From the IMG/VR virus record IMGVR_UViG_3300025723_000017, positions 90,060 to 154,059 of that record: a stretch of 64,000 nucleotides of DNA. The stretch is one strand, 5' to 3'. Below are positions 16,036 through 43,619 of this stretch, piece by piece. The notes below the pieces were generated by a model. That model was not told the DNA's origin and made no database searches. It saw only the letters and a list, made by a program, of their open reading frames with translations. The DNA comes from a virus (lineage: Duplodnaviria; Caudoviricetes). Each line of letters starts with the position of its first letter. The stretch's first letter is position 1. Made by a program: the position numbers and the translations under genes.

Positions 16036-16037
16036 GA

Positions 16038-26120: not shown

Positions 26121-26518
26121 CTACAGCTTGGAGTCACTTACCCAATTCCGCACATATAGATCGCATCTTAGCTGATATAGAAACCAATTCACATAATTGG
26201 CGTAAGCCTTTTGGGACTGAGACTGACGGTGCATCTTATAAGGTGGCTACCGATTTGCTCTACACGTGGGATAAGTCTAAGCATATAGTTTATAATATTA
26301 TCAGCAGGGAGGCCCAGACGGTGGCTAGGGCCAATCTGGCGGCCTGGGATGCGGCCTGGTATGCAGCTTGTTTTGCCATATTGGCCTTGATTGCCTGGCC
26401 CGAATCAGGTGATTATCTATCATTACCTCGTGATCAAGTGCAGGTGTTGTCGGCACTGGGTGATTCCAAGGCCACCTTATTATTACCAGCCATTGGAGTG
26501 TTGTCATGTGTCAATTGA
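26117..26518 (+). CDS. HLPNAAHIDRI family protein
   Basis: Tandem paralogue. Confidence 0.85.
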   Translation: MTTAWSHLPNSAHIDRILADIETNSHNWRKPFGTETDGASYKVATDLLYTWDKSKHIVYNIISREAQTVARANLAAWDAAWYAACFAILALIAWPESGDYLSLPRDQVQVLSALGDSKATLLLPAIGVLSCVN

Positions 26519-26745
26519 ATCTATTGCTCAATGATCAATTGGGAGATCTATGGTTTACTCACTCACTCCCCACCTATGATGACCATGGCGGACTGTGTGA
26601 CTATTGGTATAATTTTCTTACCCAAACAGACTCGGCCGGTGGCGACCCAGATGATCTACTATGTTGGTCGGCTAGGCTAGTTGATGACACGATATATTTC
26701 CACAGCGAATCTGCTAGAACATTATTTTTGCTGAGATTTGCATAA
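26506..26745 (+). CDS. F-x-L-[RK]-W family protein
   Basis: Ends FLLRFA. Confidence 0.75.
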   Translation: MCQLNLLLNDQLGDLWFTHSLPTYDDHGGLCDYWYNFLTQTDSAGGDPDDLLCWSARLVDDTIYFHSESARTLFLLRFA

Positions 26746-26999
26746 TGCAGCCATGTGTGCAACCTGGACTTCTTCCTGACCCTCAATACCTGTCCGTTTA
26801 TTCCCACAAACTATACCTATACCAGGGTATCCTTTTTAAGGCTCATAGTTATACTGAGAATTTTTCCCGGTATCTCAGAACCAATCAATTGAATATAGAT
26901 AAGGTGTTACGGGAGGATTTTAATGCAATTCAATATTACGGAGCATTTAGATTTCAGCAGGAGCAGGATCTTACTTTATTTTTATTAAAATTTTCCTAA
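26745..26999 (+). CDS. F-x-L-[RK]-W family protein
   Basis: Ends FLLKFS. Confidence 0.75.
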   Translation: MQPCVQPGLLPDPQYLSVYSHKLYLYQGILFKAHSYTENFSRYLRTNQLNIDKVLREDFNAIQYYGAFRFQQEQDLTLFLLKFS

Positions 27000-27000
27000 C

Positions 27001-27303
27001 ATGTGGCCAATATACATAGCAGTCCCCACTACATATCCCTATCGTTTCGACAGACGAGCCAACTATGCAGAAGATGCGTTATCACGCGAGTTTAATCTAC
27101 CCGTTCATTTTGTAACAAACGAAGGGATTAAGTTTGGTCATCCAGCTACTGATGTGTACCGTGTGGAATTACCCAGTGAGCAGGACCAATTATTTTTCCT
27201 ACTAAAATATAATTTCGTGCTGTTGGATAATAAGCTGGTAGACGACTATATTCAATATGAGTTTAACGAAAACGCCAAGTTCCAACTATTTCATTCATTA
27301 TAA
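27001..27303 (+). CDS. F-x-L-[RK]-W family protein with C-terminal extension
   Basis: EQDQLFFLLKY then extension. Confidence 0.7.
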   Translation: MWPIYIAVPTTYPYRFDRRANYAEDALSREFNLPVHFVTNEGIKFGHPATDVYRVELPSEQDQLFFLLKYNFVLLDNKLVDDYIQYEFNENAKFQLFHSL

Positions 27304-27611
27304 ATGATTGACAATTACAGCATTTGGTTTTATAATTAATTTTTAATTAAACAATTTAAATTTGAGACGTGACGAATGATCGCCATAATTATGCTTTATA
27401 TTATTGGATTGCTGGGGTTTTTTACACTATTAATGGTGCCTTCTGCATATAAAGAACAGGGAATTGCGTCTGCCATTTTACACATAATTGTTGCGATGAC
27501 GATTTTATCAGTTCCTGTTTTTGTTTTGATACTGTAATAATTAATATTTTTGTTTGACAATTAAATCATCCTCATTTATAATTAACTTATATTAAACAAA
27601 CGGAGTATGTA

Positions 27612-27812
27612 ATGAACGAGCAAATTCTAAAACTTTTAGAGCAATCGGGACTACAGCCTTATTATCCAGCTCAAGAACAACAAATTGAACAATTTGCTCA
27701 GTTGCTGGTTCGGGAATGTCTAACAGTAATCAATCAACCCAATGGTGTTGGCGATGATGATGTTATTCGAATCAGTAATGATGTACAACAATATTTCGGA
27801 GTTGAAGAATGA
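27612..27812 (+). CDS. MNE...GVEE family protein
   Basis: Family motifs; own promoter. Confidence 0.8.
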   Translation: MNEQILKLLEQSGLQPYYPAQEQQIEQFAQLLVRECLTVINQPNGVGDDDVIRISNDVQQYFGVEE

Positions 27813-28039
27813 ACGAACTTATTCGACAACTGGCTGAACAGGCTGGAATGATTATTGGTGATACTAGTGAGTTTGATATGGCAAAAATCATGCCGAAGGA
27901 ACTAAAGTTCGCCCAGTTGATTGTAGAAGAATGTATTGCCAAAATCTCACAAGAGCAGGACTTAGCTGAACAAAATTGGCTTTGTGATAATGGTGTACAC
28001 ATTTGTCACGAACTAACAAAACATTTCGGAATTGAATGA
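27809..28039 (+). CDS. MNE...GVEE family protein
   Basis: Family motifs. Confidence 0.8.
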   Translation: MNELIRQLAEQAGMIIGDTSEFDMAKIMPKELKFAQLIVEECIAKISQEQDLAEQNWLCDNGVHICHELTKHFGIE

Positions 28040-28187
28040 TGACACAGATTAGAGTGATTCCGAGATATGTTGATCATCTATGGTATCCTATACTTGTAAA
28101 AACCACAACAGGTTATAATCGAATCATAGAAATGCAAGGTCGTGCTGTGAATGAATGGAACGACAAAATAAGAAATGGGAGAAGATT

Positions 28188-28349: not shown

Positions 28350-28403
28350 AGTTGACAGTTAAAACTTTATCCACTATAATGAATTATGAATAAGGAGATG
28401 GCG

Positions 28404-28859
28404 ATGAAGAAAGGCGAAATGTTAGGCAAGATGTTAGTACTGGTCACCAATGCCCATGCAGGACAGTTTGATCGTGGTGGCTCGCCCTACATCCTCCACC
28501 CCCTGAAGGTCATGCACTACCTCAAGAGCGATGATGAAGAGCTGATGGTGATGGCTCTAGGGCACGATGTTATTGAGGATACTAATGTGACTTACGAGGA
28601 CCTTCGTCAAGCGGGCATCAGCGAGCGAGCAATCAAAGGCATTGCTGCACTGACTAAACTGCCTGGGCAGACTCTAGACGAGTACAAGGAAAGGGTCTTC
28701 GCTAACCCAGACGCAATGCGTGTTAAGCTAGCTGATCTACGTCACAATACAGACATTCGCAGACTCAAGGGTGTTACCGAAAAAGACATTGCACGTATGG
28801 CCAAGTATCACACATTCTTCATGGAAATACAGGCTAGACTGGTCGACAATAAAATCTAG
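28404..28859 (+). CDS. HD-domain hydrolase, RelA/SpoT hydrolase (Mesh1/SAH)-like
   Basis: AHAGQFDRGGSPYILHP, LGHDVIEDT, VKLADLRHN motifs. Confidence 0.85.
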   Translation: MKKGEMLGKMLVLVTNAHAGQFDRGGSPYILHPLKVMHYLKSDDEELMVMALGHDVIEDTNVTYEDLRQAGISERAIKGIAALTKLPGQTLDEYKERVFANPDAMRVKLADLRHNTDIRRLKGVTEKDIARMAKYHTFFMEIQARLVDNKI

Positions 28860-28900
28860 AATGAACGAACGAATTCGGCAACTTGCTAAAAGAATACTAC

Positions 28901-29203
28901 ATGGGTTCTAACTCCTATTACATTATCCAACGACCAATGGAAGATTCTGAACTTGAATGGTATGATGATTCTTCTGTTTGTTATGTCGCTGGTCAGCCCT
29001 CTTACCTTGATTGGGTTATGGACCCACTGGACGCTCGGCGATTTAAATCTATTACCGAGATTCGACGTTATATTACCAATGTATTGAAATTTAACCCACT
29101 TAGTGTGATTAACCTTAAGGCCTGGGAATTTCATCTAATCACTATGATTCCTCCAACAGACATCTTCACTGGAGCGCACACTATGGGCTTGCTTAAAATA
29201 TGA
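28901..29203 (+). CDS. Hypothetical protein
   Basis: ORF coupled to 29200. Confidence 0.55.
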   Translation: MGSNSYYIIQRPMEDSELEWYDDSSVCYVAGQPSYLDWVMDPLDARRFKSITEIRRYITNVLKFNPLSVINLKAWEFHLITMIPPTDIFTGAHTMGLLKI

Positions 29204-29424
29204 CCCACATCTCCATGTGGGATTCCCTTCGTCTGAACCGAAGCAGACAATATCATAATTTCATTCAGTATCTGCAGCGGCAACACGAACCGGCTCTTGT
29301 CACATTGGATTTCGTTATTGAAATACTTCGCCGAGATTGGCACTGTCAATTACTGAAGGAAATGGGTTTATTTATTTTTGAAAACGACGCCGATGCCACA
29401 GTATTTTTACTGAAGTTTAGTTAA
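29200..29424 (+). CDS. F-x-L-[RK]-W family protein
   Basis: FENDADATVFLLKFS. Confidence 0.8.
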   Translation: MTHISMWDSLRLNRSRQYHNFIQYLQRQHEPALVTLDFVIEILRRDWHCQLLKEMGLFIFENDADATVFLLKFS

Positions 29425-29705
29425 TTGTCAATATTGACAATTACATCAATTCAGCTTATAATAACTATAACTTAACAAAACCTATTAGAGGTCAATAATG
29501 GATACAGAATTACGTGAGCAATTTTTACAATTTCTTCGCGAAGAGTTAACTATTGATGTTACTACCGAAAGTGTTTATAGTGGCGGTATGTTTGGTGATA
29601 GCATGTATAGTAAGGTTCGTACATTGAACATTATGCTTGGTAATGAGGTTATTTCGTCTATCTGCCTTGACAGTTAATTAAATCCAGTATAAGGAATTAT
29701 TAATC

Positions 29706-29912: not shown

Positions 29913-29960
29913 AAATTTGACAATTAATACACGTGTCTTTATAATTAACTGTTAATTAAC

Positions 29961-30170
29961 ATGACTGCGCCTATCACTATTTCCTCTACTGTATTAACTC
30001 GTGCGGTGCGTAGTCTATTACATGAGGGTGAGCAGTTGCCTATCCGGGAAGAAATTCTATATCAGGCTTTTGATATTGCAGCAATAATGGATGATTATAA
30101 CTCTCACGGATTCACTGTATTATTCAAATCAGAATATGCAGCTACTATGTTTTTATTAAGGTTTTCGTGA
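29961..30170 (+). CDS. F-x-L-[RK]-W family protein
   Basis: Ends FLLRFS. Confidence 0.8.
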   Translation: MTAPITISSTVLTRAVRSLLHEGEQLPIREEILYQAFDIAAIMDDYNSHGFTVLFKSEYAATMFLLRFS

Positions 30171-30171
30171 T

Positions 30172-30435
30172 ATGATAATCACTGTGCCAGATAAAGTGTT
30201 TCGGCGTGCTACTGCTTCTATCGGAGCGCATTACGAGTTTCCTACATTACGTACCACTGCTACTATTGGAACATCTGACCTGTATCCTGACTTCTTTAGC
30301 ATTTACAATATTAAAAATTATAAGTTAATTCCACAAATTGACGAATTTAACGATTCGGAACCCTTCATTGTGATGTGGCGTATTGAGTTTAAATCAGATG
30401 CCGACGCTGCTTACTTTTTACTGAAGTTTAGCTAA
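30172..30435 (+). CDS. F-x-L-[RK]-W family protein
   Basis: Ends FLLKFS. Confidence 0.8.
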   Translation: MIITVPDKVFRRATASIGAHYEFPTLRTTATIGTSDLYPDFFSIYNIKNYKLIPQIDEFNDSEPFIVMWRIEFKSDADAAYFLLKFS

Positions 30436-30436
30436 C

Positions 30437-30700
30437 ATGGCTAACATGACATCAGAACATCTAGCTGAACTGGCAGAAGAAATTAATCTAACAATAGATT
30501 GGGAAATTCTTTGCACATTAGACCCGACTAGAAAAAATTGGATAAGGATAAAATTTGCTTCCCAAACCAAATCGATAGACAGAGGTGCGATTGATACTTG
30601 GTGCCAACAGACGTTTGTTGGTGGCTATTATATAATTAGAGATCATATATATATTTCCAGAGAAGAAGATGTTGTAATGTTTAAACTGAAGTGGGCGTGA
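30437..30700 (+). CDS. F-x-L-[RK]-W family protein
   Basis: Ends FKLKWA. Confidence 0.8.
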   Translation: MANMTSEHLAELAEEINLTIDWEILCTLDPTRKNWIRIKFASQTKSIDRGAIDTWCQQTFVGGYYIIRDHIYISREEDVVMFKLKWA

Positions 30701-30704
30701 TAAA

Positions 30705-31049
30705 ATGAATAGTCACCAAAGAAGAATTGCAAAGCGTAAGAGCATGCAGGATCGGCGTAAAAGGATAGATATACTATTTGAAAAGATCGTCCCGTTCTAC
30801 TACGCTTCTGTTTCGCCGGTATACACCATTACTCTTAATATTCGTTTTCCTAATTTCACTATTGTAGACCATGCAATGTATGATTATGTACCCGACAACT
30901 ATTGCATAGTGCAGGTACTGTCAAAGGTTGCTGATTGGATAGAACAGCAGGATATTACACTTTGGAAACCTGATGATTCCAACAACCATCTTCAGAGATA
31001 TATTATATCCAATGAGTTATATTCATTGATGGCATTAAGGTGGTCATGA
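30705..31049 (+). CDS. F-x-L-[RK]-W family protein
   Basis: MNSHQRR start; ends ALRWS. Confidence 0.8.
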   Translation: MNSHQRRIAKRKSMQDRRKRIDILFEKIVPFYYASVSPVYTITLNIRFPNFTIVDHAMYDYVPDNYCIVQVLSKVADWIEQQDITLWKPDDSNNHLQRYIISNELYSLMALRWS

Positions 31050-31297
31050 TGGTCACTGATAACCAACGTAGATTAACTCATCAGGTTGTAATAGCTCCTG
31101 CACCTTATGCTAAAATACAACAAATATGCACATGGTGTCAAAATCAATTTGGAAAGAGTTTTGGTATTATTGATAGTGACATTGATGGGACGTGGAGAGG
31201 TGTATATCATGAGATATCATCTGGTGTACCAATTTCATATAAATTCTTATTCGATCACGAAGATGATGCTGTACTTTTTGCGTTGAAATGGTGTTAG
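31046..31297 (+). CDS. F-x-L-[RK]-W family protein
   Basis: ATGA overlap; ends FALKWC. Confidence 0.8.
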   Translation: MMVTDNQRRLTHQVVIAPAPYAKIQQICTWCQNQFGKSFGIIDSDIDGTWRGVYHEISSGVPISYKFLFDHEDDAVLFALKWC

Positions 31298-31298
31298 T

Positions 31299-31544
31299 AT
31301 GTCTTATTATACAGATAATTTAACAAAACACAATACAGAATATACCGCACGCGGCGAAGGTATTCGATATCGTACTCGCTCAATGTTTATGGGTCAGGTT
31401 TACAAATGGTTAAACGAACACAATATTGAATATACATGGGTAGGCCACCAGACTAGTGAGAGAGGCAGTATTACAACTTATTACCTCACTGTGAGTATAC
31501 TTAATGAGCATGACGCCATGCTGTTTATGTTAGCATGGAAATAG
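31299..31544 (+). CDS. F-x-L-[RK]-W family protein
   Basis: Ends FMLAWK. Confidence 0.75.
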   Translation: MSYYTDNLTKHNTEYTARGEGIRYRTRSMFMGQVYKWLNEHNIEYTWVGHQTSERGSITTYYLTVSILNEHDAMLFMLAWK

Positions 31545-31545
31545 A

Positions 31546-31779
31546 ATGAAGAATTTGGGATTTAATTATAAAATATCCGCAGAGGTGGGCAATTACCACC
31601 AACTCGATAATATGTTTACATGGTGTAATGAAACATTCGGCCCTAGATATGGTTCATTTAGTAACAACCAAGGCAGGTGGGCTTGTTTGTGGCAACAATA
31701 CCAAAAGACACATGGATATTTCTGGTACTTTAGACAGGAAGAAGATGCTGCATTTTTTACACTGAGGTGGATAAAATGA
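31546..31779 (+). CDS. F-x-L-[RK]-W family protein
   Basis: WCNETFG; ends FTLRWIK. Confidence 0.8.
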   Translation: MKNLGFNYKISAEVGNYHQLDNMFTWCNETFGPRYGSFSNNQGRWACLWQQYQKTHGYFWYFRQEEDAAFFTLRWIK

Positions 31780-31961
31780 AAAATGATAATTTTATGGTTA
31801 GTAAACCGGGGGAAATTTATATTAGGGTGCCTACAATAACCAAGGAAATACTCATGTGGCTTGACAATTATGAAGGAGATGGTACATATTCACGAGGATG
31901 GTATGGTATATATTTTACTAGAGAAGAAGATGCTGTCATGTTTAGCCTGAGGTGGATATGA
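31776..31961 (+). CDS. F-x-L-[RK]-W family protein
   Basis: Ends FSLRWI; close paralogue of 34444. Confidence 0.8.
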   Translation: MKNDNFMVSKPGEIYIRVPTITKEILMWLDNYEGDGTYSRGWYGIYFTREEDAVMFSLRWI

Positions 31962-32191
31962 GTCAATATAGTCAAGATTCTTTATCACGACGTACATATC
32001 ACGATAATTGGATTCTGATCCAGTTACCTCGTCTACTTTCGCTTGACTGTATTGTATGGTGTTATGAGAAATTTGGTGAAGAACGAATATTACGTGGGAC
32101 TTGTACGGGTAAGTGGCTTCATCGTGGCGCAGGTAACATTGAATTTGAGCGTGAGGAAGACGCTGTATTATTTACCCTGAGGTGGCTATAA
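31958..32191 (+). CDS. F-x-L-[RK]-W family protein
   Basis: Ends FTLRWL. Confidence 0.8.
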   Translation: MSQYSQDSLSRRTYHDNWILIQLPRLLSLDCIVWCYEKFGEERILRGTCTGKWLHRGAGNIEFEREEDAVLFTLRWL

Positions 32192-32430
32192 TGTACTATG
32201 TCAAGAAATCTAGAATCCGTCTACAGATATCACGATTATATCAAAATTGGACAAACATACTTGGTCCTTCCTGGTTCTTTTATACGTTTGAAGAAAGGTA
32301 TCAACAGTTTGATGTGTGGATGGAGAGAGAACATGGTATAATAACAATTCGTTCGAATAATAAAAGCCAAACAAAACTTGGATTTAAGAGCCAAGGTGAC
32401 TTTTTAATGTTTATGCTACGCTGGAGTTAA
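32191..32430 (+). CDS. F-x-L-[RK]-W family protein
   Basis: Ends FMLRWS. Confidence 0.8.
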   Translation: MYYVKKSRIRLQISRLYQNWTNILGPSWFFYTFEERYQQFDVWMEREHGIITIRSNNKSQTKLGFKSQGDFLMFMLRWS

Positions 32431-32495
32431 AATACCACTTACTATAGAGTTAACTTTTTGTTGACATTTAATTCATTCTTAATTAAAATTGATAT

Positions 32496-32849
32496 ATGTA
32501 TACCGAAAACCTATTGATTGATTTTCACAACCTAACGAGTGTTAATCTCCCTCAACACACTTGCATATCTCTACAGCAATATCTGCTAAAGGGATGGGAT
32601 CCAGGTGGATTCCTCAGTGCAGTTCTTATGAATGATATGATGTTGGCTGTGACTCGCGCAGATCCGGTTAACCGCAAGTTTTTATGGGATATCGGACGTT
32701 GGGTCTACACTCAAGCGCCACCTGGCAGCTGGGGCAGTAGAGAAATGGTACTGAATTGGATGAATGATCTAGGCGGTCATAGAAGTAAGTACGCAAACAC
32801 TATAGAACATGAACACTTAATCCATGTGTTAAAGAGGCCTGAGCCATGA
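32496..32849 (+). CDS. Conserved phage hypothetical protein
   Basis: PGGFLSAVLMND...AD..N...P.GSWGS. Confidence 0.8.
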   Translation: MYTENLLIDFHNLTSVNLPQHTCISLQQYLLKGWDPGGFLSAVLMNDMMLAVTRADPVNRKFLWDIGRWVYTQAPPGSWGSREMVLNWMNDLGGHRSKYANTIEHEHLIHVLKRPEP

Positions 32850-34632: not shown

Positions 34633-34633
34633 T

Positions 34634-35518: not shown

Positions 35519-35572
35519 ACAATTGATTAATTTTCGTTTATAATCACAATAATGTAATCAATTGAGATCAGC

Positions 35573-36824: not shown

Positions 36825-36833
36825 TGATTATTT

Positions 36834-37067
36834 GTGAAATATACTAATTTCTATAAAGGATGGCATTATATTCAAATGTCCAGTGACATGGATGTAGTGA
36901 AATGGGGAGACTGTTATCAATGGTGTAGTGAGATATTTGGATTCGAACATCACACAAATTCTAGATGGGCTTATGTTGGAAACGGAGCATTTTATTTTGC
37001 CGACGAACATGATTTTCTATTAGTAACATTAAAATTTCCACATTCCTACATAATAAATAAAGTATGA
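36834..37067 (+). CDS. F-x-L-[RK]-W family protein
   Basis: WCSEIFG...FYFADEHDFLLVTLKF. Confidence 0.75.
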   Translation: MKYTNFYKGWHYIQMSSDMDVVKWGDCYQWCSEIFGFEHHTNSRWAYVGNGAFYFADEHDFLLVTLKFPHSYIINKV

Positions 37068-37645
37068 AGATAATTTATATACACGGAGCAAACGCCACTA
37101 GTGAAAGTTTTACTAGGATTAGAGAACACATCAAACAAGACGACTTGGTTATTGATTATGATAGTCGTAATGGATTTGACTATAATCTCGATCAAATGGT
37201 TGATACATTACGAGATTTTGACAATTTGTTCTTTGTAGGACACAGCTTGGGCGGAATTTACGCATTATATCTAGCGGCTAAATTTTATTCTCACAAAACC
37301 CTAGGTGGGATAACACTCAGTACTCCCTACGGAGGATGTCAACAGGCTGACTATGCCAAATATTTTGTACCCTGGAATAGATTAATGCGTGATATTGGAA
37401 TAATTAGTCCAGTTATGCAGGGTGTTAAAGATTTGGTATTGCCCTCAATTTGGGCTAATATTGTTACAACATCAGGAACCAGTCCTTGGATATTAGAACC
37501 AAACGATGGTGTCGTTACACATGCCAGTATGCGGGCTCGTGCTGACATGGAATTAATTGAATTGCCATTAAATCATTACGAAGTAGTTATCAGTAATCGC
37601 ACTATTACAACAATACAACATCAAATTGATTTGACAAATCGTTAA
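37064..37645 (+). CDS. Alpha/beta hydrolase (esterase/lipase-like)
   Basis: YIHG oxyanion motif, GHSLGG nucleophile elbow, STPYGG, NDGVV, NH. Confidence 0.9.
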   Translation: MKIIYIHGANATSESFTRIREHIKQDDLVIDYDSRNGFDYNLDQMVDTLRDFDNLFFVGHSLGGIYALYLAAKFYSHKTLGGITLSTPYGGCQQADYAKYFVPWNRLMRDIGIISPVMQGVKDLVLPSIWANIVTTSGTSPWILEPNDGVVTHASMRARADMELIELPLNHYEVVISNRTITTIQHQIDLTNR

Positions 37646-37702
37646 TTTATTGCTATCATAGCAATATATGATAACTCAATATCTTTTACATATTAGCAAC
37701 GC

Positions 37703-37918
37703 ATGATAGCGGCCGAAATCGAAACCGTTCAATTTAATCATATTGACACAATACATATAGAACGATGGTGTAGCGAGATGCTGGGCCCAAAAGCTATATT
37801 TCGTGATCAAGTCTCAGATGAGTATCCGTGGACAGTTAGTTATTCAGGACTTGGCACTTATCTGTGGCACTTTGCTCATGCAGAATCAGCTACTTTATTT
37901 GCTCTTAGATGGCGATGA
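37703..37918 (+). CDS. F-x-L-[RK]-W family protein
   Basis: Ends FALRWR. Confidence 0.8.
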   Translation: MIAAEIETVQFNHIDTIHIERWCSEMLGPKAIFRDQVSDEYPWTVSYSGLGTYLWHFAHAESATLFALRWR

Positions 37919-38154
37919 GCTATAAAACAGATCTAAACAAGATTTTTCGCAAGCATGCTTTGAGTCCGCCACTGCTGCGGGGTGAGAATATTCTGCAAGA
38001 GATAACCCAAGAGATAACCCAAGAGATGAAATTAAAATACCCAGGAAACTATACTGTAGAGTTATGTTTTCAATTCCGTCGTGGCACCTGGGAGCCACTG
38101 TTAAAGTTTGATAATTCACAAGAAGAAACAATGTTTTTACTGAGGTATTCATGA
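37915..38154 (+). CDS. F-x-L-[RK]-W family protein
   Basis: KYPG subtype; ends FLLRYS. Confidence 0.8.
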   Translation: MSYKTDLNKIFRKHALSPPLLRGENILQEITQEITQEMKLKYPGNYTVELCFQFRRGTWEPLLKFDNSQEETMFLLRYS

Positions 38155-38366
38155 AGAAAATAACTATTACTGGTAAATTACCTGGTCAAGTAATGGAAAT
38201 AGTTCGTGAACTTAGAACCATGGGGTGGGCACAGGGGCAAGATTTTGATTTTGCATATAATGGTCAAGTATGGGACCCAATGACAGGTAAAATGATACTT
38301 AGATATACCATTTTTACTTTTTATAATGAGATGTATGCTACATTATTTGCATTAAAATATTCATAA
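38151..38366 (+). CDS. F-x-L-[RK]-W family protein
   Basis: Ends FALKYS. Confidence 0.8.
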   Translation: MKKITITGKLPGQVMEIVRELRTMGWAQGQDFDFAYNGQVWDPMTGKMILRYTIFTFYNEMYATLFALKYS

Positions 38367-38429
38367 GATTCAAGTGTATTTTGATACAATTGCCAGTTGA
38401 CATTTAAACATTATGGTCGTATAATACTA

Positions 38430-38598: not shown

Positions 38599-39042
38599 AT
38601 GACAATTATTGATGCAATTACAAAATATAACTTTGATCCGGCAGGTTCTATAGTTCATCCAGCTGACAAAGAATTACCTAAATTTGAATTTAATTCTCAT
38701 TGGATCAGTAATAAAACTACTGGACTAGTTTATCTATGGGTCAAGTATACAAATAATGTTTTAGTTGATATTGCTTATGTAGGTAAAGCAGGACGAACCT
38801 TACGTATGCGCTGTGGGCAACATCACGGCGGATGGAGAGAAAGTTTAAAGACACCTGATATAGAATCTAATCGTACACGTATAATTTCCTGGCTTGCAGA
38901 GCCTGAAAACAGTATACAACTATTTGCTCGAGTGAGCCCTGTATTAGATATTAATGACGAAAAAATTTGTAGTTATAGTATTGACGAAGAATCTTTTATT
39001 AAGAAGTTTCGTAATATGAATTGCGCCTTGTGGAATAGTTAA
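38599..39042 (+). CDS. GIY-YIG-like nuclease-fold protein
   Basis: GLVYLW...AYVGKAGRTLRMRCGQH...EESFI...WN. Confidence 0.7.
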   Translation: MTIIDAITKYNFDPAGSIVHPADKELPKFEFNSHWISNKTTGLVYLWVKYTNNVLVDIAYVGKAGRTLRMRCGQHHGGWRESLKTPDIESNRTRIISWLAEPENSIQLFARVSPVLDINDEKICSYSIDEESFIKKFRNMNCALWNS

Positions 39043-39061
39043 AATATTCATAAAGACTCAT

Positions 39062-39349
39062 ATGACCAATAGAATTGATATAACTAAAAATATTCTCTCT
39101 CCCCGACTGACGCCCGACAGTCCGAGAAAAGTCATAATTGAATGGCTAAATCAAAATGTCGGCCCATCAATACCTAATGAGGATACCAGAGCCGAGCATT
39201 TTGATGATTATATTGGTGTGGGTTGGAGATTTGGCCGAACCACGACGATTATGGAGGCAGCTAACAGGATTCCATATTATGCCACGTCATGGTATGTTGA
39301 AATTGAAGATTCTATATTAGCAACTCTTTTTATCTTAAAATGGGGTTAA
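39062..39349 (+). CDS. F-x-L-[RK]-W family protein
   Basis: WLNQNVGP...GVGW subtype; ends FILKWG. Confidence 0.8.
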   Translation: MTNRIDITKNILSPRLTPDSPRKVIIEWLNQNVGPSIPNEDTRAEHFDDYIGVGWRFGRTTTIMEAANRIPYYATSWYVEIEDSILATLFILKWG

Positions 39350-39350
39350 C

Positions 39351-39584
39351 ATGACAGTTAGACTATTAGTACAAGATCCAACTCGTGGGCAATATCGAAG
39401 TTACATACCGCCTTGGTGGCGTAACTTCCTTAATGATATTCCTATGCCTTTGGCAAAGGCATCAGCATCAGACGTGGTGATTTCAAGATTAGCCGAATGG
39501 GGCGGGCGTCCTGTTGACGGTACTGCATTTATTGAATTTTATCTTGATGCTGACGCCACTAGATTTTTGTTGAGGTGGTCATGA
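39351..39584 (+). CDS. F-x-L-[RK]-W family protein
   Basis: PPWWRNFL subtype; ends FLLRWS. Confidence 0.8.
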   Translation: MTVRLLVQDPTRGQYRSYIPPWWRNFLNDIPMPLAKASASDVVISRLAEWGGRPVDGTAFIEFYLDADATRFLLRWS

Positions 39585-39808
39585 AAAGTGCAAAGATAAA
39601 TCCACCGTATAAATGGAAATTCGACGATCAGTCATCTATGCTGGATATTCAACAGTGGTGCCGACAGCATTTTGGAACTGCTTATCTACAGCTTTATGGT
39701 TATCTCGCAGATTTTGAACAAGAGCTAAGATGGACCTATAGTGACAGAATCTTTTATTTCCATCATGAAGAAGATTATGCTTGGTTTTTGTTGAAGTGGG
39801 TAAAATGA
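39581..39808 (+). CDS. F-x-L-[RK]-W family protein
   Basis: Ends FLLKWVK. Confidence 0.8.
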   Translation: MKSAKINPPYKWKFDDQSSMLDIQQWCRQHFGTAYLQLYGYLADFEQELRWTYSDRIFYFHHEEDYAWFLLKWVK

Positions 39809-40074
39809 CATTTGAGGTAGATAAAATGACATTCGAAATGGTAAAATTCTATGTCGGACCAGATCCAACAAAAAGAAAATTGGCAGAGTTTCATATCGAC
39901 CCTGATCGTAATCAAATCATTATCAATCATATTGAGGGAAGTAGTTGGGAAGACAGAGAAGCATGGTTAGAGCATCACGGTGCAATTAAATATGATTATC
40001 AAATAGGTGATTGGCGCACTACTTGGCCAGTTACTGAAGAACTTTGTGCGCTGTTTTTGTTGAGGTGGGCATGA
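39805..40074 (+). CDS. F-x-L-[RK]-W family protein
   Basis: Ends FLLRWA. Confidence 0.75.
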   Translation: MTFEVDKMTFEMVKFYVGPDPTKRKLAEFHIDPDRNQIIINHIEGSSWEDREAWLEHHGAIKYDYQIGDWRTTWPVTEELCALFLLRWA

Positions 40075-40286
40075 CAAAAGTTGATATGATCAGTCATTGG
40101 AATTTTTATAAGGTGATTAGAGATGAACCTGATCTTCAAGGGAAATATCCTTCTCGGGCATTATTTGAACAATTGATTCGCGAAAAATATGGATTGAAAT
40201 CTGCAAAGGTGCAGCCATTTGATATGTTTGGAGTATTTGAATTGTCACATCGTGATTACACATTATTTTTATTAAGGTGGTCATGA
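40071..40286 (+). CDS. F-x-L-[RK]-W family protein
   Basis: Ends FLLRWS. Confidence 0.8.
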   Translation: MTKVDMISHWNFYKVIRDEPDLQGKYPSRALFEQLIREKYGLKSAKVQPFDMFGVFELSHRDYTLFLLRWS

Positions 40287-40531
40287 TAACGAAACAGGCC
40301 GCAGCAAATTGGCGTGGCTATCCTGATGATATTATAAAGGATACACCTGATTATTATCCCTGGCGCAAATGTTACGTTTGGTATCCTGTTCAAACCATAA
40401 GTGGGCGGTACGCTTGGTTCGAACAATTATACAAGCGTAGAGTCTGGGTTTATTTGGGAAGTTACTATAGTTTATGTTATGAACCTGAAACACAGTACGC
40501 GACCCTGCTCGAACTACTAATGGTTGACTGA
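40283..40531 (+). CDS. Hypothetical protein
   Basis: WRKCYVWYPVQTISGRYAWF; coupled. Confidence 0.7.
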   Translation: MITKQAAANWRGYPDDIIKDTPDYYPWRKCYVWYPVQTISGRYAWFEQLYKRRVWVYLGSYYSLCYEPETQYATLLELLMVD

Positions 40532-40844
40532 TAACCAGATTCACGCTATAATATTAAGATTATCATTGCACACCGAATACACCATGAAAATTATTAAGCT
40601 GGACAAAAGATATAGATATTGGCACAAAGGATTTACTTATGCCATCCGTTGGAGTGGATATAATCACACTCGAATAGAACCGTATTCCATTTTTATGGAA
40701 CGCCATTATGGATCCGAGTATTTATATGAAAACTTGTGGTGCCAGGGGCATGGATCTATTCCCAAGTATGGAAGACGTAATTACTATCTATATGTGCGTG
40801 ATGAACGTATGCTGACCATGGCGATGTTGGGTGTGCAAAATTGA
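40524..40844 (+). CDS. Hypothetical protein (similar to 58788)
   Basis: KIIKLDKRY...YAI...RDERMLTM. Confidence 0.7.
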   Translation: MTDNQIHAIILRLSLHTEYTMKIIKLDKRYRYWHKGFTYAIRWSGYNHTRIEPYSIFMERHYGSEYLYENLWCQGHGSIPKYGRRNYYLYVRDERMLTMAMLGVQN

Positions 40845-41068
40845 ACGCACGGCAACGTCGACGTACCCAAAGATATTGGCTATATCATGTGGTACTGACA
40901 GATTATTATACAATGAGGAATGCCAGAGCCTGGTGTTATGATAATATCGGCAAATGGGGCATTGATTGGATACAACGCCCGGACCATGATACTTTTTATT
41001 TTCATAAATCAAAACATTCGGTTCTGTTTAGTTTGAAATGGCTATGCGTAAAATGTTTAAACAACTGA
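40841..41068 (+). CDS. F-x-L-[RK]-W family protein
   Basis: MNARQRR start (TTG); FSLKW. Confidence 0.75.
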   Translation: MNARQRRRTQRYWLYHVVLTDYYTMRNARAWCYDNIGKWGIDWIQRPDHDTFYFHKSKHSVLFSLKWLCVKCLNN

Positions 41069-41147: not shown

Positions 41148-41378
41148 ATGAGTAGAATATCTTTTAGCAGAGATCAACTTGACCGAGCGGGAGATTGTAT
41201 CAAATGGCTAATGAAAAATGTCGGGCCCTTAGAAGATCATCACGGAGGTAGTTATGTACGTGGTGTTGGGTGGGAATATTGGGTTGTTAACAATCCTGAG
41301 ATTTTAACAGTACATGTTGAATTAACTGCGGATGTTGACGAAGAAACACAAATACTTTTTATGTTGAAATGGGCATGA
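41148..41378 (+). CDS. F-x-L-[RK]-W family protein
   Basis: Ends FMLKWA. Confidence 0.8.
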   Translation: MSRISFSRDQLDRAGDCIKWLMKNVGPLEDHHGGSYVRGVGWEYWVVNNPEILTVHVELTADVDEETQILFMLKWA

Positions 41379-41620
41379 CGAAAATAGATAAAAATTGGCA
41401 AAGAGATTTGCGTGCATTTGAAGATGAATGCAGTGCAAAATATCATAATATGCTGTTGCACGGACAAGATATCAAAAGTGATTGTTTAGATAAAATGCAA
41501 AAAAAATATCCAGGTAAATATGATCTTATTTGGGCAAAGACTGACCATATGCTGTGGCATTTAGAAATAATGTTTGAAGATCCAGCTGAACAAACATTAT
41601 TTTTATTGAAGTGGACATGA
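41375..41620 (+). CDS. F-x-L-[RK]-W family protein
   Basis: KYPG subtype; ends FLLKWT. Confidence 0.8.
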   Translation: MTKIDKNWQRDLRAFEDECSAKYHNMLLHGQDIKSDCLDKMQKKYPGKYDLIWAKTDHMLWHLEIMFEDPAEQTLFLLKWT

Positions 41621-41853
41621 TGTCAATTGAAATTCAACGGTATACGGACATTGTAGTACAATATAAAAGTATTGATATGTTAGACTGGTGCAATGAGAAT
41701 ATTGCCGGATATGGACGTTGGGTTAACCCAACATTTTATTTTGATGCAGGATATGCTTGGTATGCTCGTAGATACATGAGTGGCGATTCACGAGTTATTT
41801 TTAGTTTTTTACGGCCAGAAGACGCCACACTATTTTTATTGAGATGGACATGA
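41617..41853 (+). CDS. F-x-L-[RK]-W family protein
   Basis: Ends FLLRWT. Confidence 0.8.
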   Translation: MMSIEIQRYTDIVVQYKSIDMLDWCNENIAGYGRWVNPTFYFDAGYAWYARRYMSGDSRVIFSFLRPEDATLFLLRWT

Positions 41854-42047
41854 AAGTAGAAAGAACAACATTCCCGGGTTGGAGCGATCACCCCTTATAT
41901 CGTGTTAAAACGCAGGCTGATTATCGTACGATTGGACAATGGATGTGTGAGAACGAATGTGACGATTTCTTGGTAAGCAGTGGCAGCTATGGATATGTCT
42001 TTCAAGTTAGAAAAAATCATGATTGGTTTTTATTGAGGTGTACATGA
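41850..42047 (+). CDS. F-x-L-[RK]-W family protein
   Basis: Ends FLLRCT. Confidence 0.75.
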   Translation: MKVERTTFPGWSDHPLYRVKTQADYRTIGQWMCENECDDFLVSSGSYGYVFQVRKNHDWFLLRCT

Positions 42048-42271
42048 CTGTGATCAAATTAAAATATCCACTAGATCAGAGTTTCTTTGCTCATGTAAAA
42101 CTACATGACCGGCAAAGAAAATGGTGCACTGAACAATTTGGCCCAGAAGGTATTTGGAAAGATGAACTCGCAATAGAAGACTCATATGCACAGTTATATT
42201 TAACAGGTGTTACTTGTTGGTATTTCGCTAACGAAGAAGATGCTGTGTTATTTGCCTTGAGATGGGCATGA
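42044..42271 (+). CDS. F-x-L-[RK]-W family protein
   Basis: WCTEQFG; ends FALRWA. Confidence 0.8.
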   Translation: MTVIKLKYPLDQSFFAHVKLHDRQRKWCTEQFGPEGIWKDELAIEDSYAQLYLTGVTCWYFANEEDAVLFALRWA

Positions 42272-42468
42272 TGCACATAGTTAGAGTACCCTTTCGTGTA
42301 CCTCCCCAGAGCACTGTCGGAATGAATCTTTGGTTGACACAACAGCTAAAGTTAGTGTATAGACAAGACTGGAAGTGGTATAGTTCATATCCTGAATATG
42401 GATATTATATCTATCAATTCAAAGATGAACAAATGGCCACAATCTTTGCCTTGCGGTGGGTTAGATGA
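42268..42468 (+). CDS. F-x-L-[RK]-W family protein
   Basis: Ends FALRWVR. Confidence 0.8.
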   Translation: MMHIVRVPFRVPPQSTVGMNLWLTQQLKLVYRQDWKWYSSYPEYGYYIYQFKDEQMATIFALRWVR

Positions 42469-42860
42469 AATTACTGGATGACATACGGGACCGTTGGACG
42501 ACATGGCGCACCGGCAAGAGCCGAACAGAGCGTGAGTGGGAGGATTGGTATGACAAGAATGTCAACTGGCGTGCAAATAATATTACCGATATGTTTAAAA
42601 ACTTTAAACATGTCATTGAAGTAGATGCTACTAAGTTTTTATGGGACGAAGGAACGGTCTGGGCTCCACACCCAGCTGCTCAACAATACTTCTATCCACA
42701 GAGATCCCTGGGTGAAAACTGTGTCTGGCGATTAGAAAGAGTATCATGGAGCGATTGGCAAAAGCGTTGGATAATAAACGGAATAGGCAGTGAAGATCGA
42801 GTATTTGTTGCGACAAATTCAGATGAAGATGCTGTAATGATTGCTCTGAGGTGGAGATGA
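42465..42860 (+). CDS. F-x-L-[RK]-W family protein (long)
   Basis: Ends EDAVMIALRWR. Confidence 0.8.
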   Translation: MKLLDDIRDRWTTWRTGKSRTEREWEDWYDKNVNWRANNITDMFKNFKHVIEVDATKFLWDEGTVWAPHPAAQQYFYPQRSLGENCVWRLERVSWSDWQKRWIINGIGSEDRVFVATNSDEDAVMIALRWR

Positions 42861-43141
42861 AGATATTTCTCAATTCAGACTGCCGAGTAAGCATGCCCAT
42901 GCTGGTGTGGTTAAGTTACAATATTGGGCCCATTGAAAGCACTCGTGCTCCTGGGCCCGATCAATCGTGGACTCATCAACCGAGGCGTCATGTTGGACCC
43001 GAGTGGTGGACCCAACATCAAGGCCGAGGATGGGAAATAATGTACACTCCTCGAAGACAGGAGCAACAGACAAGACGGGGCATTTACATTGATATTGATG
43101 ATGAACAACTGGCCGTGTTGTTTTCCTTGAGGTGGTTATGA
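42857..43141 (+). CDS. F-x-L-[RK]-W family protein
   Basis: Ends FSLRWL. Confidence 0.8.
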   Translation: MKIFLNSDCRVSMPMLVWLSYNIGPIESTRAPGPDQSWTHQPRRHVGPEWWTQHQGRGWEIMYTPRRQEQQTRRGIYIDIDDEQLAVLFSLRWL

Positions 43142-43359
43142 AAAGAATAGAAGGATATCCACCGCTTGATTGGCATGAAGTTGTCATACTTTGGACTGAC
43201 ATTATAAAGAAGCAGTCCTATCATTCTATAATAGAATGGCTTGACAAAACTATCGAAGGATGTTATTATCATATAGATATATTTAATCAACCAGAAGGAA
43301 TAGCGTTTAGATTTGAACAGCGCGGAGATGCTATATTGTTTAAGCTGAAATGGGCATGA
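43138..43359 (+). CDS. F-x-L-[RK]-W family protein
   Basis: Ends FKLKWA. Confidence 0.8.
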   Translation: MKRIEGYPPLDWHEVVILWTDIIKKQSYHSIIEWLDKTIEGCYYHIDIFNQPEGIAFRFEQRGDAILFKLKWA

Positions 43360-43619
43360 ATATAATGACAGAAAACTATATTCCTGATAGACAAGACCAA
43401 GTCGAAATGAAGAATCATTATATTCACGAACTCAAAGAGCCGCATGCAGCAACTACCGCAGAGCTGCTAGCATGGCGAAATAAATGCAGAGCTATGCAAG
43501 AATGGTGTAATGAACAAGGATTTACATGGGGACTGTGTGATATAACCAACAGAATGGCAGTAAAATTTTATTTTTCTCGTTCGGAAGAGTTAACCATGTT
43601 TCTATTAAAATGGGCATAA
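43356..43619 (+). CDS. F-x-L-[RK]-W family protein
   Basis: Ends FLLKWA. Confidence 0.8.
   Translation: MNIMTENYIPDRQDQVEMKNHYIHELKEPHAATTAELLAWRNKCRAMQEWCNEQGFTWGLCDITNRMAVKFYFSRSEELTMFLLKWA

Follow-up and report, generated by a model that had tools for sequence, protein, structure and literature searches.

An expanded family of divergent small phage proteins encoded head to tail in an uncultured jumbo phage

Why would a phage carry about 52 small, divergent genes in one array, mostly closing on nearly the same codons? The source of this DNA is an uncultured jumbo phage of the PA5oct/Atu_ph07 type, and the record represents some 44% of its genome, put at roughly 350 kb. The answer was sought in the gene family itself, its junctions and promoters, its predicted fold and its occurrence in relatives. 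All features named below lie on the + strand, their coordinates refer to the window (the whole stretch of 64,000 nucleotides that was analysed), and E values of family members are those against the family profile.

Composition and divergence of the family

The array comprises 52 genes of one family (60-131 aa) at 26506-43619, 50 of them solid by profile and two borderline. Across the 154-kb record, ORFs (stop to stop, >=40 aa) ending in [FLMIYV]x[LM][RK][WFY], 0-3 residues and a stop numbered 47 on the + strand vs 5 on the - strand, and 45 of the 47 fell within 26.4-43.7 kb of the window. A profile built from the motif-bearing ORFs retrieved 52 ORFs from the whole record at E<=1e-3, every one on the + strand and none on the - strand: 49 in 26506-43619, two adjoining clpP and one 7 kb upstream of the window. 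A broader profile added 27001-27303 and 58788-59093. The 49, 27001-27303 and the borderline ORFs 32846-33094 and 41844-42047 make up the array's 52 members, in agreement with the count given by the earlier note. Three further copies are found in the rest of the window and one upstream of it. The earlier note had placed three copies beside clpP; two of these have profile support (1250-1480, E 2e-7; 1749-1964, E 4e-7), but the third, ORF 1481-1714, does not (E=3). The remaining dispersed copy, at 58788-59093, is divergent and belongs to an 'MLTM' sub-branch (E 2e-5, broader profile).

The description of the members as highly divergent proved correct, since BLASTP at E<1e-3 detects only 179 of 1431 member pairs. 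All four recurring subtypes were located. WWxNFL is represented by 26506-26745 (79 aa, ending LLRFA, E 6e-7), 34634-34858 (74 aa, orthologue 69%, E 2e-8), 35752-35994 (80 aa, E 3e-8) and 39351-39584 (77 aa, E 1e-7), and KYPG by 37909-38154 (81 aa, E 7e-10), 40065-40286 (73 aa, E 2e-5) and 41369-41620 (83 aa, E 4e-6). WLxxNVGP..GxGW comprises 39062-39349 (95 aa, E 3e-10), 41148-41378 (76 aa, E 4e-9) and 42851-43141 (96 aa, WLxxN[IV]GP, E 2e-9), and MNxxQRR comprises 30705-31049 (114 aa, E 2e-5), 36340-36582 (80 aa, E 1e-14) and 40841-41068 (75 aa, extended end, E 4e-8). The supposed recent duplicates, 31767-31961 (64 aa, assigned by profile and pairwise comparison) and 34435-34632 (65 aa, E 2e-10), are indeed the closest paralogues, but at 62.5% amino-acid identity, dN 0.24 and dS 0.5 they are not recent.

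Promoters, operons and gene junctions

Perfect TTGACA-N17-TATAAT sites occur 37 times in the record vs 0.085 in shuffles, and the + strand intergenic gaps of the array hold six perfect and four 11/12 sigma-70 sites. The WWxNFL member at 26506 is followed by 26745-26999 (84 aa, E 9e-10) and 27001-27303 (C-terminal extension of ~35 aa; E 4e-5, broader profile). Perfect consensus matches (12/12) then stand at 27308-27336, 27554-27582 and 28352-28380, the last ahead of a non-family insert encoding an HD metal-dependent phosphohydrolase (28386-28859; phrog_990, 3e-56; Pfam HD_4). Next come 29200-29424 (74 aa, E 2e-11), the last gene of its operon, which has an AAG Lys codon and no coupled gene, and another perfect site at 29434-29462.

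The perfect site at 29917-29945 precedes a 10-gene run (29961-32430), in which the members named above are joined by 29961-30170 (69 aa, E 1e-5), 30172-30435 (87 aa, E 2e-4), 30437-30700 (87 aa, E 8e-13), 31040-31297 (85 aa, E 2e-17), 31299-31544 (81 aa, ending LAWK, E 5e-4, with a 59% orthologue in the uncultured relative L024, SESB01000101.1), 31546-31779 (77 aa, WCxxxFG subtype, E 1e-17), 31952-32191 (79 aa, E 2e-15) and, at the operon end with a CGC Arg codon, 32182-32430 (82 aa, E 7e-10). An 11/12 site at 32461-32489 lies in the gap ahead of a 13-gene run (32496-35518). This run begins with a non-family insert of 117 aa (32496-32849) and the borderline 32846-33094 (82 aa, ending KLRWV), which has a profile E of only 0.2 and was assigned by eye from motif and junction. 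It continues with 33085-33354 (89 aa, orthologue 61%, E 4e-10), 33345-33557 (70 aa, E 1e-12), 33548-33799 (83 aa, E 1e-15), 33790-33990 (66 aa, E 3e-13), 33981-34196 (71 aa, E 4e-13), 34187-34447 (86 aa, a 40% paralogue of 31040-31297, E 7e-18), 34849-35064 (71 aa, E 3e-14), 35055-35294 (79 aa, running 7 codons beyond the usual stop; its L024 orthologue stops after LRWA) and the operon-end gene 35267-35518 (~83 aa, E 1e-8).

Two further 11/12 sites, at 35516-35544 and 37631-37659, precede the runs 35573-37645 and 37703-38366. The former includes 35573-35761 (62 aa, E 1e-13), 35985-36167 (60 aa, E 1e-14), 36158-36352 (64 aa, E 1e-4), 36573-36824 (83 aa, E 3e-9), 36834-37067 (77 aa, C-terminal extension, E 2e-7) and an alpha/beta hydrolase insert outside the family (37064-37645; Pfam Abhydrolase_6), and the latter 37703-37918 (71 aa, E 3e-14) and, at the operon end, 38151-38366 (71 aa, E 9e-7). 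The perfect site at 38397-38425 precedes the run 38599-40531, with a non-family insert of 147 aa (38599-39042; orthologue 63% in L024), 39575-39808 (77 aa, E 1e-17), 39796-40074 (92 aa, E 4e-9) and a possible degenerate member lacking the RW end (40277-40531; E 0.86 only, by eye).

Beyond the last 11/12 match (40524-40552), the array holds an 'MLTM' sub-branch ORF (40524-40844, start probably near 40584; E 0.06, L024 orthologue 45%), 41611-41853 (80 aa, E 4e-15), the borderline 41844-42047 (67 aa, ending LLRCT; E 0.002, broader profile), 42038-42271 (77 aa, E 8e-17), 42262-42468 (68 aa, E 4e-16), 42465-42860 (131 aa, long N-terminal part, orthologue 75%, E 3e-4), 43132-43359 (75 aa, E 1e-13) and the last member, 43350-43619 (89 aa, E 5e-14). 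Downstream of it stand a separate GGAG and then the start codon ATG of the following gene. That gene is HAD/PNK-phosphatase-like (43626-44066; phrog_415; 63% in L024) and marks a right border conserved in relatives. Behind it lies a GT4 glycosyltransferase (44070-45134; 66-67% in L012, L013, L024 and L110), which also matches Pfam 'GT4-conflict'; the HD phosphohydrolase and the alpha/beta hydrolase lie inside the array.

The ~52 genes would accordingly be read from six to eight polycistronic units behind predicted consensus host sigma-70 promoters. Given that these perfect and near-perfect promoters divide the array into operons, it is probably expressed early. The relative PA5oct is dependent on host RNA polymerase (PMC7318152).

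The typical junction reads [CT]TG-AGG-TGG-NNA-TGA, in which the four codons closing one protein (Leu-Arg-Trp-x) supply the GAGG Shine-Dalgarno sequence as well as the next gene's ATG. ATGA overlaps account for 27 of 49 junctions; TAATG overlaps and gaps of 1-4 nt, read by eye, also occur. The junction Arg codon is AGG in 25/32 cases vs a background of 5-8% (binomial P=7e-22), and the junction Leu is TTG or CTG in 38/52 vs about 29% (P=6e-11), with the control Leu three codons upstream at background. The five members with no gene coupled behind them all lack AGG at this position (P=0.03). The GAGG-to-ATG spacer of 5 nt is at the short end compared with the record's other genes (mostly 6-8 nt), which counts against this reading. 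The invariant-looking L-[RK]-W-x-stop is partly a nucleotide constraint and holds the Shine-Dalgarno sequence and start codon of the next gene. Within each unit, a gene would be translationally coupled to the next in vivo through this shared junction.

Predicted fold and conserved core

Family alignments served as input for two AlphaFold models. The protein of 31040-31297 was modelled as strand-helix-strand-strand-helix (pLDDT 83.8, pTM 0.70), and the WWxNFL protein of 39351-39584 has the same core with one extra helix (pLDDT 85.8, pTM 0.73); for 42038-42271, the model supplied by the ESM Atlas reaches a pTM of 0.67. The models suggest a beta-alpha-beta-beta-alpha scaffold, a three-stranded sheet with two helices, ferredoxin-like without the last strand. 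This fold class is provisional, since the models derive from family alignments and the best PDB alignments are weak and only generic, reaching Z 6.5 and 4.1 with ACT, ferredoxin-like and RRM domains. In BFVD, the matches were dozens of uncharacterised uncultured-phage proteins, plus Atu_ph07 and BcepSauron.

The conserved columns, which in the 31040 protein are W32, C33, F37, G38, W52, F69, F71, E74, D76, A77, L79, F80, L82, [RK]83 and W84, are almost all aromatic or aliphatic and of buried type. They place a Trp in helix 1, a Trp in strand 2, FxF in strand 3 and ExDAxxFxLxW in helix 2. Members differ in the N-terminal tail, in the helix1-strand2 loop and at every exposed position, and they range in net charge from -9 to +8 and in pI from 4.1 to 10, with Trp enriched 2.9-fold. 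The proposal of one small scaffold with a variable surface is therefore supported, in that two subtypes share a core (pLDDT 84 and 86) under this range of charge. The 'constant docking helix' of the same proposal is not: the C-terminal helix is modelled at high confidence as integral to the fold, a single residue following the Trp, and the LRW end is partly explained at the nucleotide level. As the family's conserved positions are aromatic or aliphatic and of the kind that is buried, this helix is predicted to belong to the core and not to be a free docking element. In distant homologues from other phages, DAxxFxL is retained, but the [RK]W positions vary and the Arg codons are CGC.

Distribution, functional reading and comparison with other jumbo phages

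As in the earlier note, no known domain could be assigned: Pfam, PHROG, NCBIfam and PDB gave no match to the family, and characterised proteins, whether anti-defence or not, were matched by none of its members. Among 1.84 billion metagenome proteins, 3459 cluster representatives matched at E<1e-3, all small and all aligned up to their C-terminus. Widespread in phages and apparently virus-only, the family has no entry of its own in these databases. Array and L024 share 25 reciprocal-best orthologue pairs (27-75% identity) with dN/dS of roughly 0.15-0.47, values that are rough because dS is near saturation, and the nearest tree neighbour lies in L024 for 28/54 window members. These orthologues are under purifying selection, which marks the array members as real, maintained genes.

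The products could be adaptors for one common partner, with ClpP as a candidate: a ClpP homologue (589-1185; Pfam CLP_protease, 1e-76) adjoins two family copies both here and in PA5oct, and this conserved synteny is the only hint of a link. We consider a repertoire on one scaffold for host takeover or counter-defence most likely. The array would be a lineage-specific expansion of a virus-only small-protein family within the phage early region, and its members may each bind, stoichiometrically, a different macromolecule of the host or of a rival element during the first minutes of infection; early timing, binder function and targets are all inferred. Taken as a whole, the combination of expansion, coupled early operons and a shared-fold binder repertoire has, in our judgement, an even chance of being right.

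The extent of the expansion is best seen by comparison. Relatives whose records are complete and carry terminal repeats (364 and 337 kb) gave 3 and 5 matches in whole-record searches; profile re-scoring of fetched regions adds a few weaker ORFs. The copy number of complete relatives is put at only 3-6. Since these phages manage with so few, the majority of the array's members must be dispensable, a point that counts against the proposed repertoire. In the relative closest by clamp loader there are 10 copies, of which seven to eight form a cluster a few kb upstream of this glycosyltransferase. L024 carries 43 copies at the same locus as the array, with the gene order shuffled. In contrast to the ~52 members of the array described here, the cultured jumbo phages Phosso, Atu_ph07 and PA5oct carry 31, 5 and 3 family copies, respectively.

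The protein family and its relatives in other phages

This analysis revealed that the array (26506-43619, + strand) encodes one protein family with a single predicted core, organised in tandem operons with promoters and coupling sequences, that its open frames are under purifying selection, and that copy number differs widely between related phages. When the ORFs of both strands of the whole record were scanned for the C-terminal pattern, 47 were found on the + strand and five on the - strand, and 45 of the 47 lie at 26.4-43.7 kb of the window. A profile built from the pattern ORFs retrieved 52 ORFs of the record at E<=1e-3, all on the + strand (49 in the array, two beside clpP and one upstream of the window), and a broader profile including homologues from other phages added 27001-27303 and 58788-59093. 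With two borderline ORFs counted, the array comprises 52 members of 60-131 aa (median 78), in agreement with the figure of about 52 in the earlier note, and the four recurrent subtypes named there (WWxNFL, KYPG, WLxxNVGP and MNxxQRR) are all present. The members are as divergent as had been claimed, BLASTP detecting just 179 of 1431 member pairs. The closest paralogues, 31767/34435, had been regarded as a recent duplicate pair, but at 62.5% identity they are not recent, and the second-closest pair, 31040/34187, shows 40%. A recent duplication burst was rejected on the identity of the best pair.

The chain ends 1-3 residues past the DAxxFxLx[WF] helix in 47 of the 52 array members, as it does in the metagenome matches inspected and in most inspected copies of the phages Phosso, PA5oct and Atu_ph07. 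Four members (35055-35294, 27001-27303, 36834-37067 and 40841-41068) carry 7-35 extra residues past the usual stop. In the first of these the stop has been lost and the reading frame runs 28 nt into the next gene; the orthologue of this member in L024, the array locus of an uncultured relative, stops after LRWA at an ATGA junction. A divergent sub-branch, comprising 40524-40844, 58788-59093 and L024 8309-8704, has [DE]xxMLTMxxL as last helix in place of DAxxFxLRW, and one such copy is located 15 kb outside the array.

The earlier note had been unable to assign a known domain, and this was borne out: the profile matched no characterised family. Searches of Pfam, PHROG and NCBIfam with 10 members, and then with all 122, gave no family match, and a profile search of PDB sequences gave nothing at E<=1. 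Lone one-member matches to Gp23, phrog_138 and DUF1376 were judged spurious, and DUF3110, DUF7733 and calpain EF-hand matched weakly (E 0.02-0.2). Megablast of a 14-kb stretch of the array against GenBank records of phages and tblastn with the compact homologue P0008 gave no match, and a related-locus search of viral_contigs with member 31546-31779 found no relative. A word-index homologue search with the family alignment returned only the window's own protein, the index being too coarse for this family. Among 1.84 billion proteins, the profile matched 3459 cluster representatives at E<1e-3, all small and with the match reaching the C-terminus. The cluster members inspected are metagenomic "hypothetical proteins", one of them on a 344-kb contig, and the ESM Atlas neighbours are unnamed viral clusters only. 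The 1176-aa helicase-like match P0021 was rejected as a chance partial one, as only the WCxxxFG helix in a repeated domain aligned.

An HMM search of phage sequences matched, besides metagenome clusters, three cultured phages. With the window-derived profile, 31 matches were found in Phosso (best 8e-10), five in Atu_ph07 and three in PA5oct (best 2e-6), all annotated as "hypothetical protein". The PA5oct copies (gp237, gp210 and gp209) and the Phosso ORFs (XYS97177, XYS97193 and XYS97194, for example) match significantly from helix 1 to the C-terminus. The closest relatives of the family are thus unannotated ORFs of PA5oct, Phosso and Atu_ph07. These resemble the window's members in size, in the DAxxFxLx[WF] end, in their partly head-to-tail clusters and in having syntenic copies by a ClpP-like protease and by a metallophosphoesterase, but PA5oct and Atu_ph07 have far fewer copies.

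The window is the final 64 kb of one 154,059-bp IMG/VR virus record with a GC content of 38%, and its genes include those for ClpP, PhoH, an RFC-type clamp loader, a metallophosphoesterase and a GT4 glycosyltransferase. Its clamp loader shares 52% identity with the one in the Pseudomonas jumbo phage PA5oct and 44% with the one in the Sinorhizobium phage Phosso, and the clamp-loader/PhoH neighbourhood is shared as well. Among uncultured relatives with clamp loaders 70-82% identical, two genomes (337 and 364 kb) are complete and have terminal repeats, and fragments of 43, 98 and 158 kb were rated 12, 28 and 45% complete. Given these genome sizes and ratings, the record represents about 44% of a jumbo phage genome of roughly 350 kb. 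The complete relatives gave three and five family matches in a whole-record search, to which profile re-scoring of the regions examined adds a few weaker ORFs. In one of them a family cluster lies near the metallophosphoesterase, and PA5oct gp237 likewise adjoins its own metallophosphoesterase. In the relative whose clamp loader is most similar (82%), 10 copies were found, and seven to eight of them lie together a few kb upstream of the glycosyltransferase gene that the window also has.

Predicted fold, conserved core and variable surface

With regard to structure, the AlphaFold model of the 31040-31297 protein (53-member alignment; pLDDT 83.8, pTM 0.70) shows a strand at residues 14-18, a helix at 23-37, strands at 52-58 and 64-71 and a final helix at 74-84. 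The model of the WWxNFL-type protein 39351-39584 (122-sequence alignment; pLDDT 85.8, pTM 0.73) exhibits the same strand, helix, hairpin and C-terminal helix, with one extra helix. The two modelled subtypes therefore share a common core, as expected of a single fold, and the ESM Atlas model of a third member has a pTM of 0.67. Aromatic or aliphatic residues make up nearly all of the conserved columns (W32, C33, F37, W52, F69, F71, A77, L79, F80, L82 and W84), together with a glycine after helix 1, the acidic cap E74/D76 and [RK]. The remaining positions vary, and the net charge of members ranges from -9 to +8. As the conserved columns are of core type and all else varies, the family is best described as one small scaffold with a variable surface, which supports this part of the earlier proposal.

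Foldseek found nothing below 1e-3 in the PDB. An exhaustive aligner gave the ACT domain 5v0s_B as best neighbour (Z 6.5, rmsd 2.6 A over 61 residues), followed by Cse3/RRM-type structures at Z 4.1 or less, all of these scores being within the range of common arrangements. Among predicted viral structures, both models match dozens of uncharacterised proteins of uncultured phages, as well as proteins of Atu_ph07 and BcepSauron. Searches of Pfam, PHROGs, NCBIfam, PDB sequences and PDB folds revealed no similarity to characterised inhibitors (anti-CRISPR, anti-restriction and others).

The order and packing of strand, helix, strand, strand and helix recall ferredoxin-like domains such as ACT, RRM and the dimeric alpha-beta barrel. 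However, in those domains the antiparallel sheet has four strands and both helices pack against the same side of it, whereas the models have three strands and two helices (three in the WWxNFL type); the fourth strand is absent, and neither a sequence match nor a ligand or RNP motif is present. In RRMs, which are among the weak neighbours, the RNP1/RNP2 aromatics are exposed on the sheet, and the conserved FxF in strand 3 of the family has a spacing that would place it on one face or the other; in ACT domains a ligand-binding loop joins strand 1 to helix 1. Members that bind RNA, DNA or a metabolite, with paralogues tuning host or phage transcripts, could nevertheless be imagined: structural comparison ranks ACT, RRM, KH and Cas6-type ferredoxin-like domains highest, one member in three is basic (pI above 8.8), and an Arg-rich N-terminus occurs in several proteins of the MNxxQRR subtype. 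We consider this explanation unlikely. Even the ACT domain, the top structural neighbour, reaches only a Z that common arrangements give, and ACT, RRM and KH found no Pfam match among the 122 members; the strand 3 aromatics alternate like core residues, with no conserved surface position, and many members are strongly acidic, down to -9.

Gene junctions, promoters and evolution of the array

Neighbouring genes of the array are joined by a recurrent sequence, of which TTG-AGG-TGG-TCA-TGA is an example. The stop overlaps the ATG of the next gene (ATGA) at 27 of 49 junctions; TAATG overlaps and gaps of 1-4 nt, judged by eye, also occur. At the junctions GAGG stands 5 nt upstream of the next ATG, while the other genes of the record have AGGA- or GGAG-type sites, mostly 6-8 nt away. 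The arginine of the motif is encoded by AGG in 25 of 32 cases, against 5% in the record's long ORFs and 8% in family gene bodies (P=7e-22), and the invariant leucine before it by TTG/CTG in 38 of 52 against about 29% (P=6e-11). As a control, the conserved leucine three codons upstream is at background usage, and the upstream Ala, Thr and Asp codons vary freely. AGG is absent in all five members that lack a coupled downstream gene. The final residue looks free, since the last codon almost always ends in A where the stop is TGA. The freedom of synonymous sites upstream, together with purifying selection on orthologues, led us to reject the possibility that the ORFs are artefacts of DNA repeats. 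No tRNA genes were found in the record, which is thus without a phage tRNA-Arg(CCU) matching AGG codons. In Phosso (record positions 2821-3189), a tRNA-Arg(CCU) gene lies directly upstream of the best-scoring family copy.

The homologues of Phosso, PA5oct and Atu_ph07 keep DAxxFxL but vary in the next two residues (R, A, T, Q or Y; W, F or H); neither the [RK]W positions nor the AGG-TGG junction is retained, and Phosso has CGC for arginine and separate gene starts. On this comparison, ExDAxxFxLx[WF]-end is the signature of the family at the protein level, and the near-invariant L-[RK]-W-x-stop of the window phage is apparently reinforced by a second role as ribosome-binding site and start codon. 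We infer from sequence that these junction signals function in vivo. A conserved protein end can thus mix signals from the fold core and from the ribosome-binding site and start codon of the next gene. This matters for annotation when C-terminal "motifs" are read as docking sites, and for start calling in arrays of this kind.

This dual coding bears on an improbable alternative, in which the family consists of adaptors whose constant C-terminal helix or Leu-Arg-Trp end docks to one common partner, such as phage ClpP or host ClpX/ClpA, while the variable part brings different substrates, or in which the tail is a degron that times removal. Two copies (1250-1480 and 1749-1964) do lie directly downstream of the ClpP homologue (589-1185), and PA5oct has the same order at 180349-182187 (gp212 protease, gp210, gp209); these look like old, syntenic copies. 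Three copies had been placed beside clpP, of which the profile supports these two. ORF 1481-1714, between them, has no profile support and shows a faint resemblance only (helix W, FSF and a hydrophobic last helix). Helix 2 is also hydrophobic at six of its eight last positions, beyond the packing need of a three-stranded sheet, so that one face could be an interface. However, the models place this helix in the core with high confidence (block pLDDT 94-96), with one residue following the Trp, and do not support the constant docking helix that the earlier note had suggested. Known Clp degrons are unstructured tails. The Shine-Dalgarno sequence and start codon of the next gene account for the strict [RK]-W-x-stop, which is not kept in the three cultured phages; no Pfam or NCBIfam match to ClpS or another adaptor family was found among the 122 members, and 52 of the 55 window copies are not near clpP.

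The record contains 37 perfect TTGACA-N17-TATAAT sites, compared with 0.085 in shuffles. Six sigma-70 consensus sites matching at 12/12 positions and four at 11/12 are located in the gaps of the array (27308, 27554, 28352, 29434, 29917, 32461, 35516, 37631, 38397 and 40524), which they divide into runs of 3 to 13 coupled genes. A further 21 perfect promoters on the - strand stand ahead of small leftward genes at 5.8-19.7 kb, and + strand sites begin at 20.1 kb. The - strand region 5800-19750 contains 437 repeated 16-mers in 17 kb, far above the array. PA5oct relies on host RNA polymerase, and its small uncharacterised terminal-repeat genes are early (PMC7318152). Considering this dependence and the consensus promoters in its gaps, the array is, judged by its sequence, most likely an early region, and its predicted strong host-type promoters precede runs of small ORFs as in host-takeover regions.

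On its right, the array is bordered by genes for a HAD-like protein (43626-44066) and a GT4 glycosyltransferase (44070-45134; also matching Pfam "GT4-conflict"), and within it lie genes for an HD phosphohydrolase and an alpha/beta hydrolase. This context is weakly compatible with a takeover or counter-defence role. The glycosyltransferase is 66-67% identical in four relatives' loci that are otherwise poorly syntenic (L012, L013, L024 and L110), with family genes upstream of it in L024 and L110 and the HAD-like partner present too in L024; this gene may move along with the hot spot. Immediately upstream of the array, 25288-26518 encodes three tandem paralogues of 133-140 aa with the common N-terminus MTTAW[HS]HLPN, for which neither Pfam nor PHROG gave a match. 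Another pair of small paralogues, 27612-27812 and 27809-28039 (66 and 76 aa, starting MNE..L..L.EQ.G), is unrelated to the main family.

The locus L024 (contig SESB01000101.1; also SESF01002064.1) has 43 members in 20 kb with the same junction sequence, and its array is closed off by the same pair of border genes, which are 63% and 66% identical to those of the window. The two arrays share 25 reciprocal-best family pairs, at 27-75% identity. Their dN/dS is about 0.15-0.47, compared with 0.08 for the glycosyltransferase, values that are rough with dS near saturation. In a tree of 157 members, the nearest neighbour lies in L024 for 28 of 54 window members and in the window itself for 17. Taken together, the reciprocal-best pairs, purifying selection and tree neighbours indicate that most of the expansion predates the split of the two phages and has been kept since. 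The expansion is specific to this lineage, and that in Phosso is separate.

At conserved residues the third base is identical more often in family orthologues (455/716, 0.64) than in five pairs of non-family orthologues located in or next to the array (219/430, 0.51; Fisher P=3e-5). Several array genes have an NG86 dS of 0.7-1.0, and flanking enzymes have one of 1.9-3.0. These differences could reflect more recent cassette exchange or an extra RNA constraint. Exact 16-24-mers are repeated at the junctions (the array contains 36 repeated 16-mers and an equal-length control 2), which, with the higher synonymous-site identity, suggests as a lead rather than a result that the junction also helps cassettes to move. 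Such findings would also be expected if amplification were largely neutral or selfish, the 15-24 nt junction and 3' module driving unequal recombination so that copies with little individual function pile up and shuffle at a permissive hot spot. Gene order relative to L024 is kept in local blocks and shuffled overall, and relatives range from 3 to over 50 copies. We nevertheless find this unlikely: orthologue pairs have been retained at 40-75% identity with a dN/dS under 0.5, each of the 52 reading frames is open with no frame-shifted or truncated copy seen, and the paralogues are old, with no ongoing burst evident.

Proposed role and comparison with known systems

The explanation we favour is that the products would appear early, in comparable amounts, and that each would use its variable surface to bind a target of its own, forming a repertoire for host takeover or counter-defence. 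As a more tentative proposal, possible rather than probable, some jumbo phages would have amplified a virus-only binder scaffold into a counter-defence library in which each member neutralises a different host defence or takeover target. Protein core, ribosome-binding site and start codon would be combined in one unit of 15-24 nt, and this shared 3' module would let whole genes duplicate, swap and stay expressed anywhere in early operons. The least probable of the alternatives is that the members are self-associating modules, the missing fourth strand being made up by homo- or heterodimerisation into mixed oligomers such as an early scaffold or a condensate; the truncated beta-alpha-beta-beta-alpha model with its open sheet face and very hydrophobic last helix, the dimeric ferredoxin-like proteins among the structural neighbours and the metagenomic two-domain fusions P0002, P0024, P0046, P0115 and P0135 would fit it, but variable charge and surface speak against a common sheet interface.

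If the members do inhibit host systems, the array would be a ready catalogue of small binders and of host processes to disable. Small early phage genes are mostly without known function, and here more than 50 share one predicted fold. With thousands of environmental members and copies in three cultured jumbo phages, one structure and one pooled screen could assign roles.

In phages, the library would correspond to the multigene families known from large eukaryotic DNA viruses. The MGF110/360/505 families of ASFV and the ankyrin or Bcl-2-like families of poxviruses are paralogue arrays that vary between strains and are used against host defences. The likeness, which is one of analogy only, lies in tandem paralogues on one scaffold in variable number; there is no sequence or fold relation to the array family.

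Among known systems, those most like the array are the early host-takeover blocks found in large phages and the zinc-ribbon expansion in phage G. Early blocks, including the host-takeover module of SPO1 and the hyperplastic early regions of T4 with their promoter-stem-loop cassettes, likewise have dense, very small ORFs, strong host-type early promoters, overlapping stops and starts and an order shuffled between relatives. The terminal repeat of PA5oct also carries early small genes (PMC7318152). In contrast to the mixed, unrelated ORFans of these blocks, the array contains some 50 genes of one family and one predicted fold, and its repeated element is the gene 3' end with the junction rather than an intergenic promoter cassette. 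In Bacillus phage G, a zinc ribbon with about 35 copies was described as a lineage-specific expansion and called "unprecedented" for phages (Iyer et al. 2021, PMC7824862). It too is one small domain in tens of copies in one jumbo phage lineage, with a guessed function, but its fold differs, the present family having no metal ligands, and the array, with 52 copies in 17 kb, is larger, tandem and apparently coupled in translation. What is new here is that an uncatalogued fold family, more than 50 tandem and probably early genes, and a 3' module with a dual use occur together.
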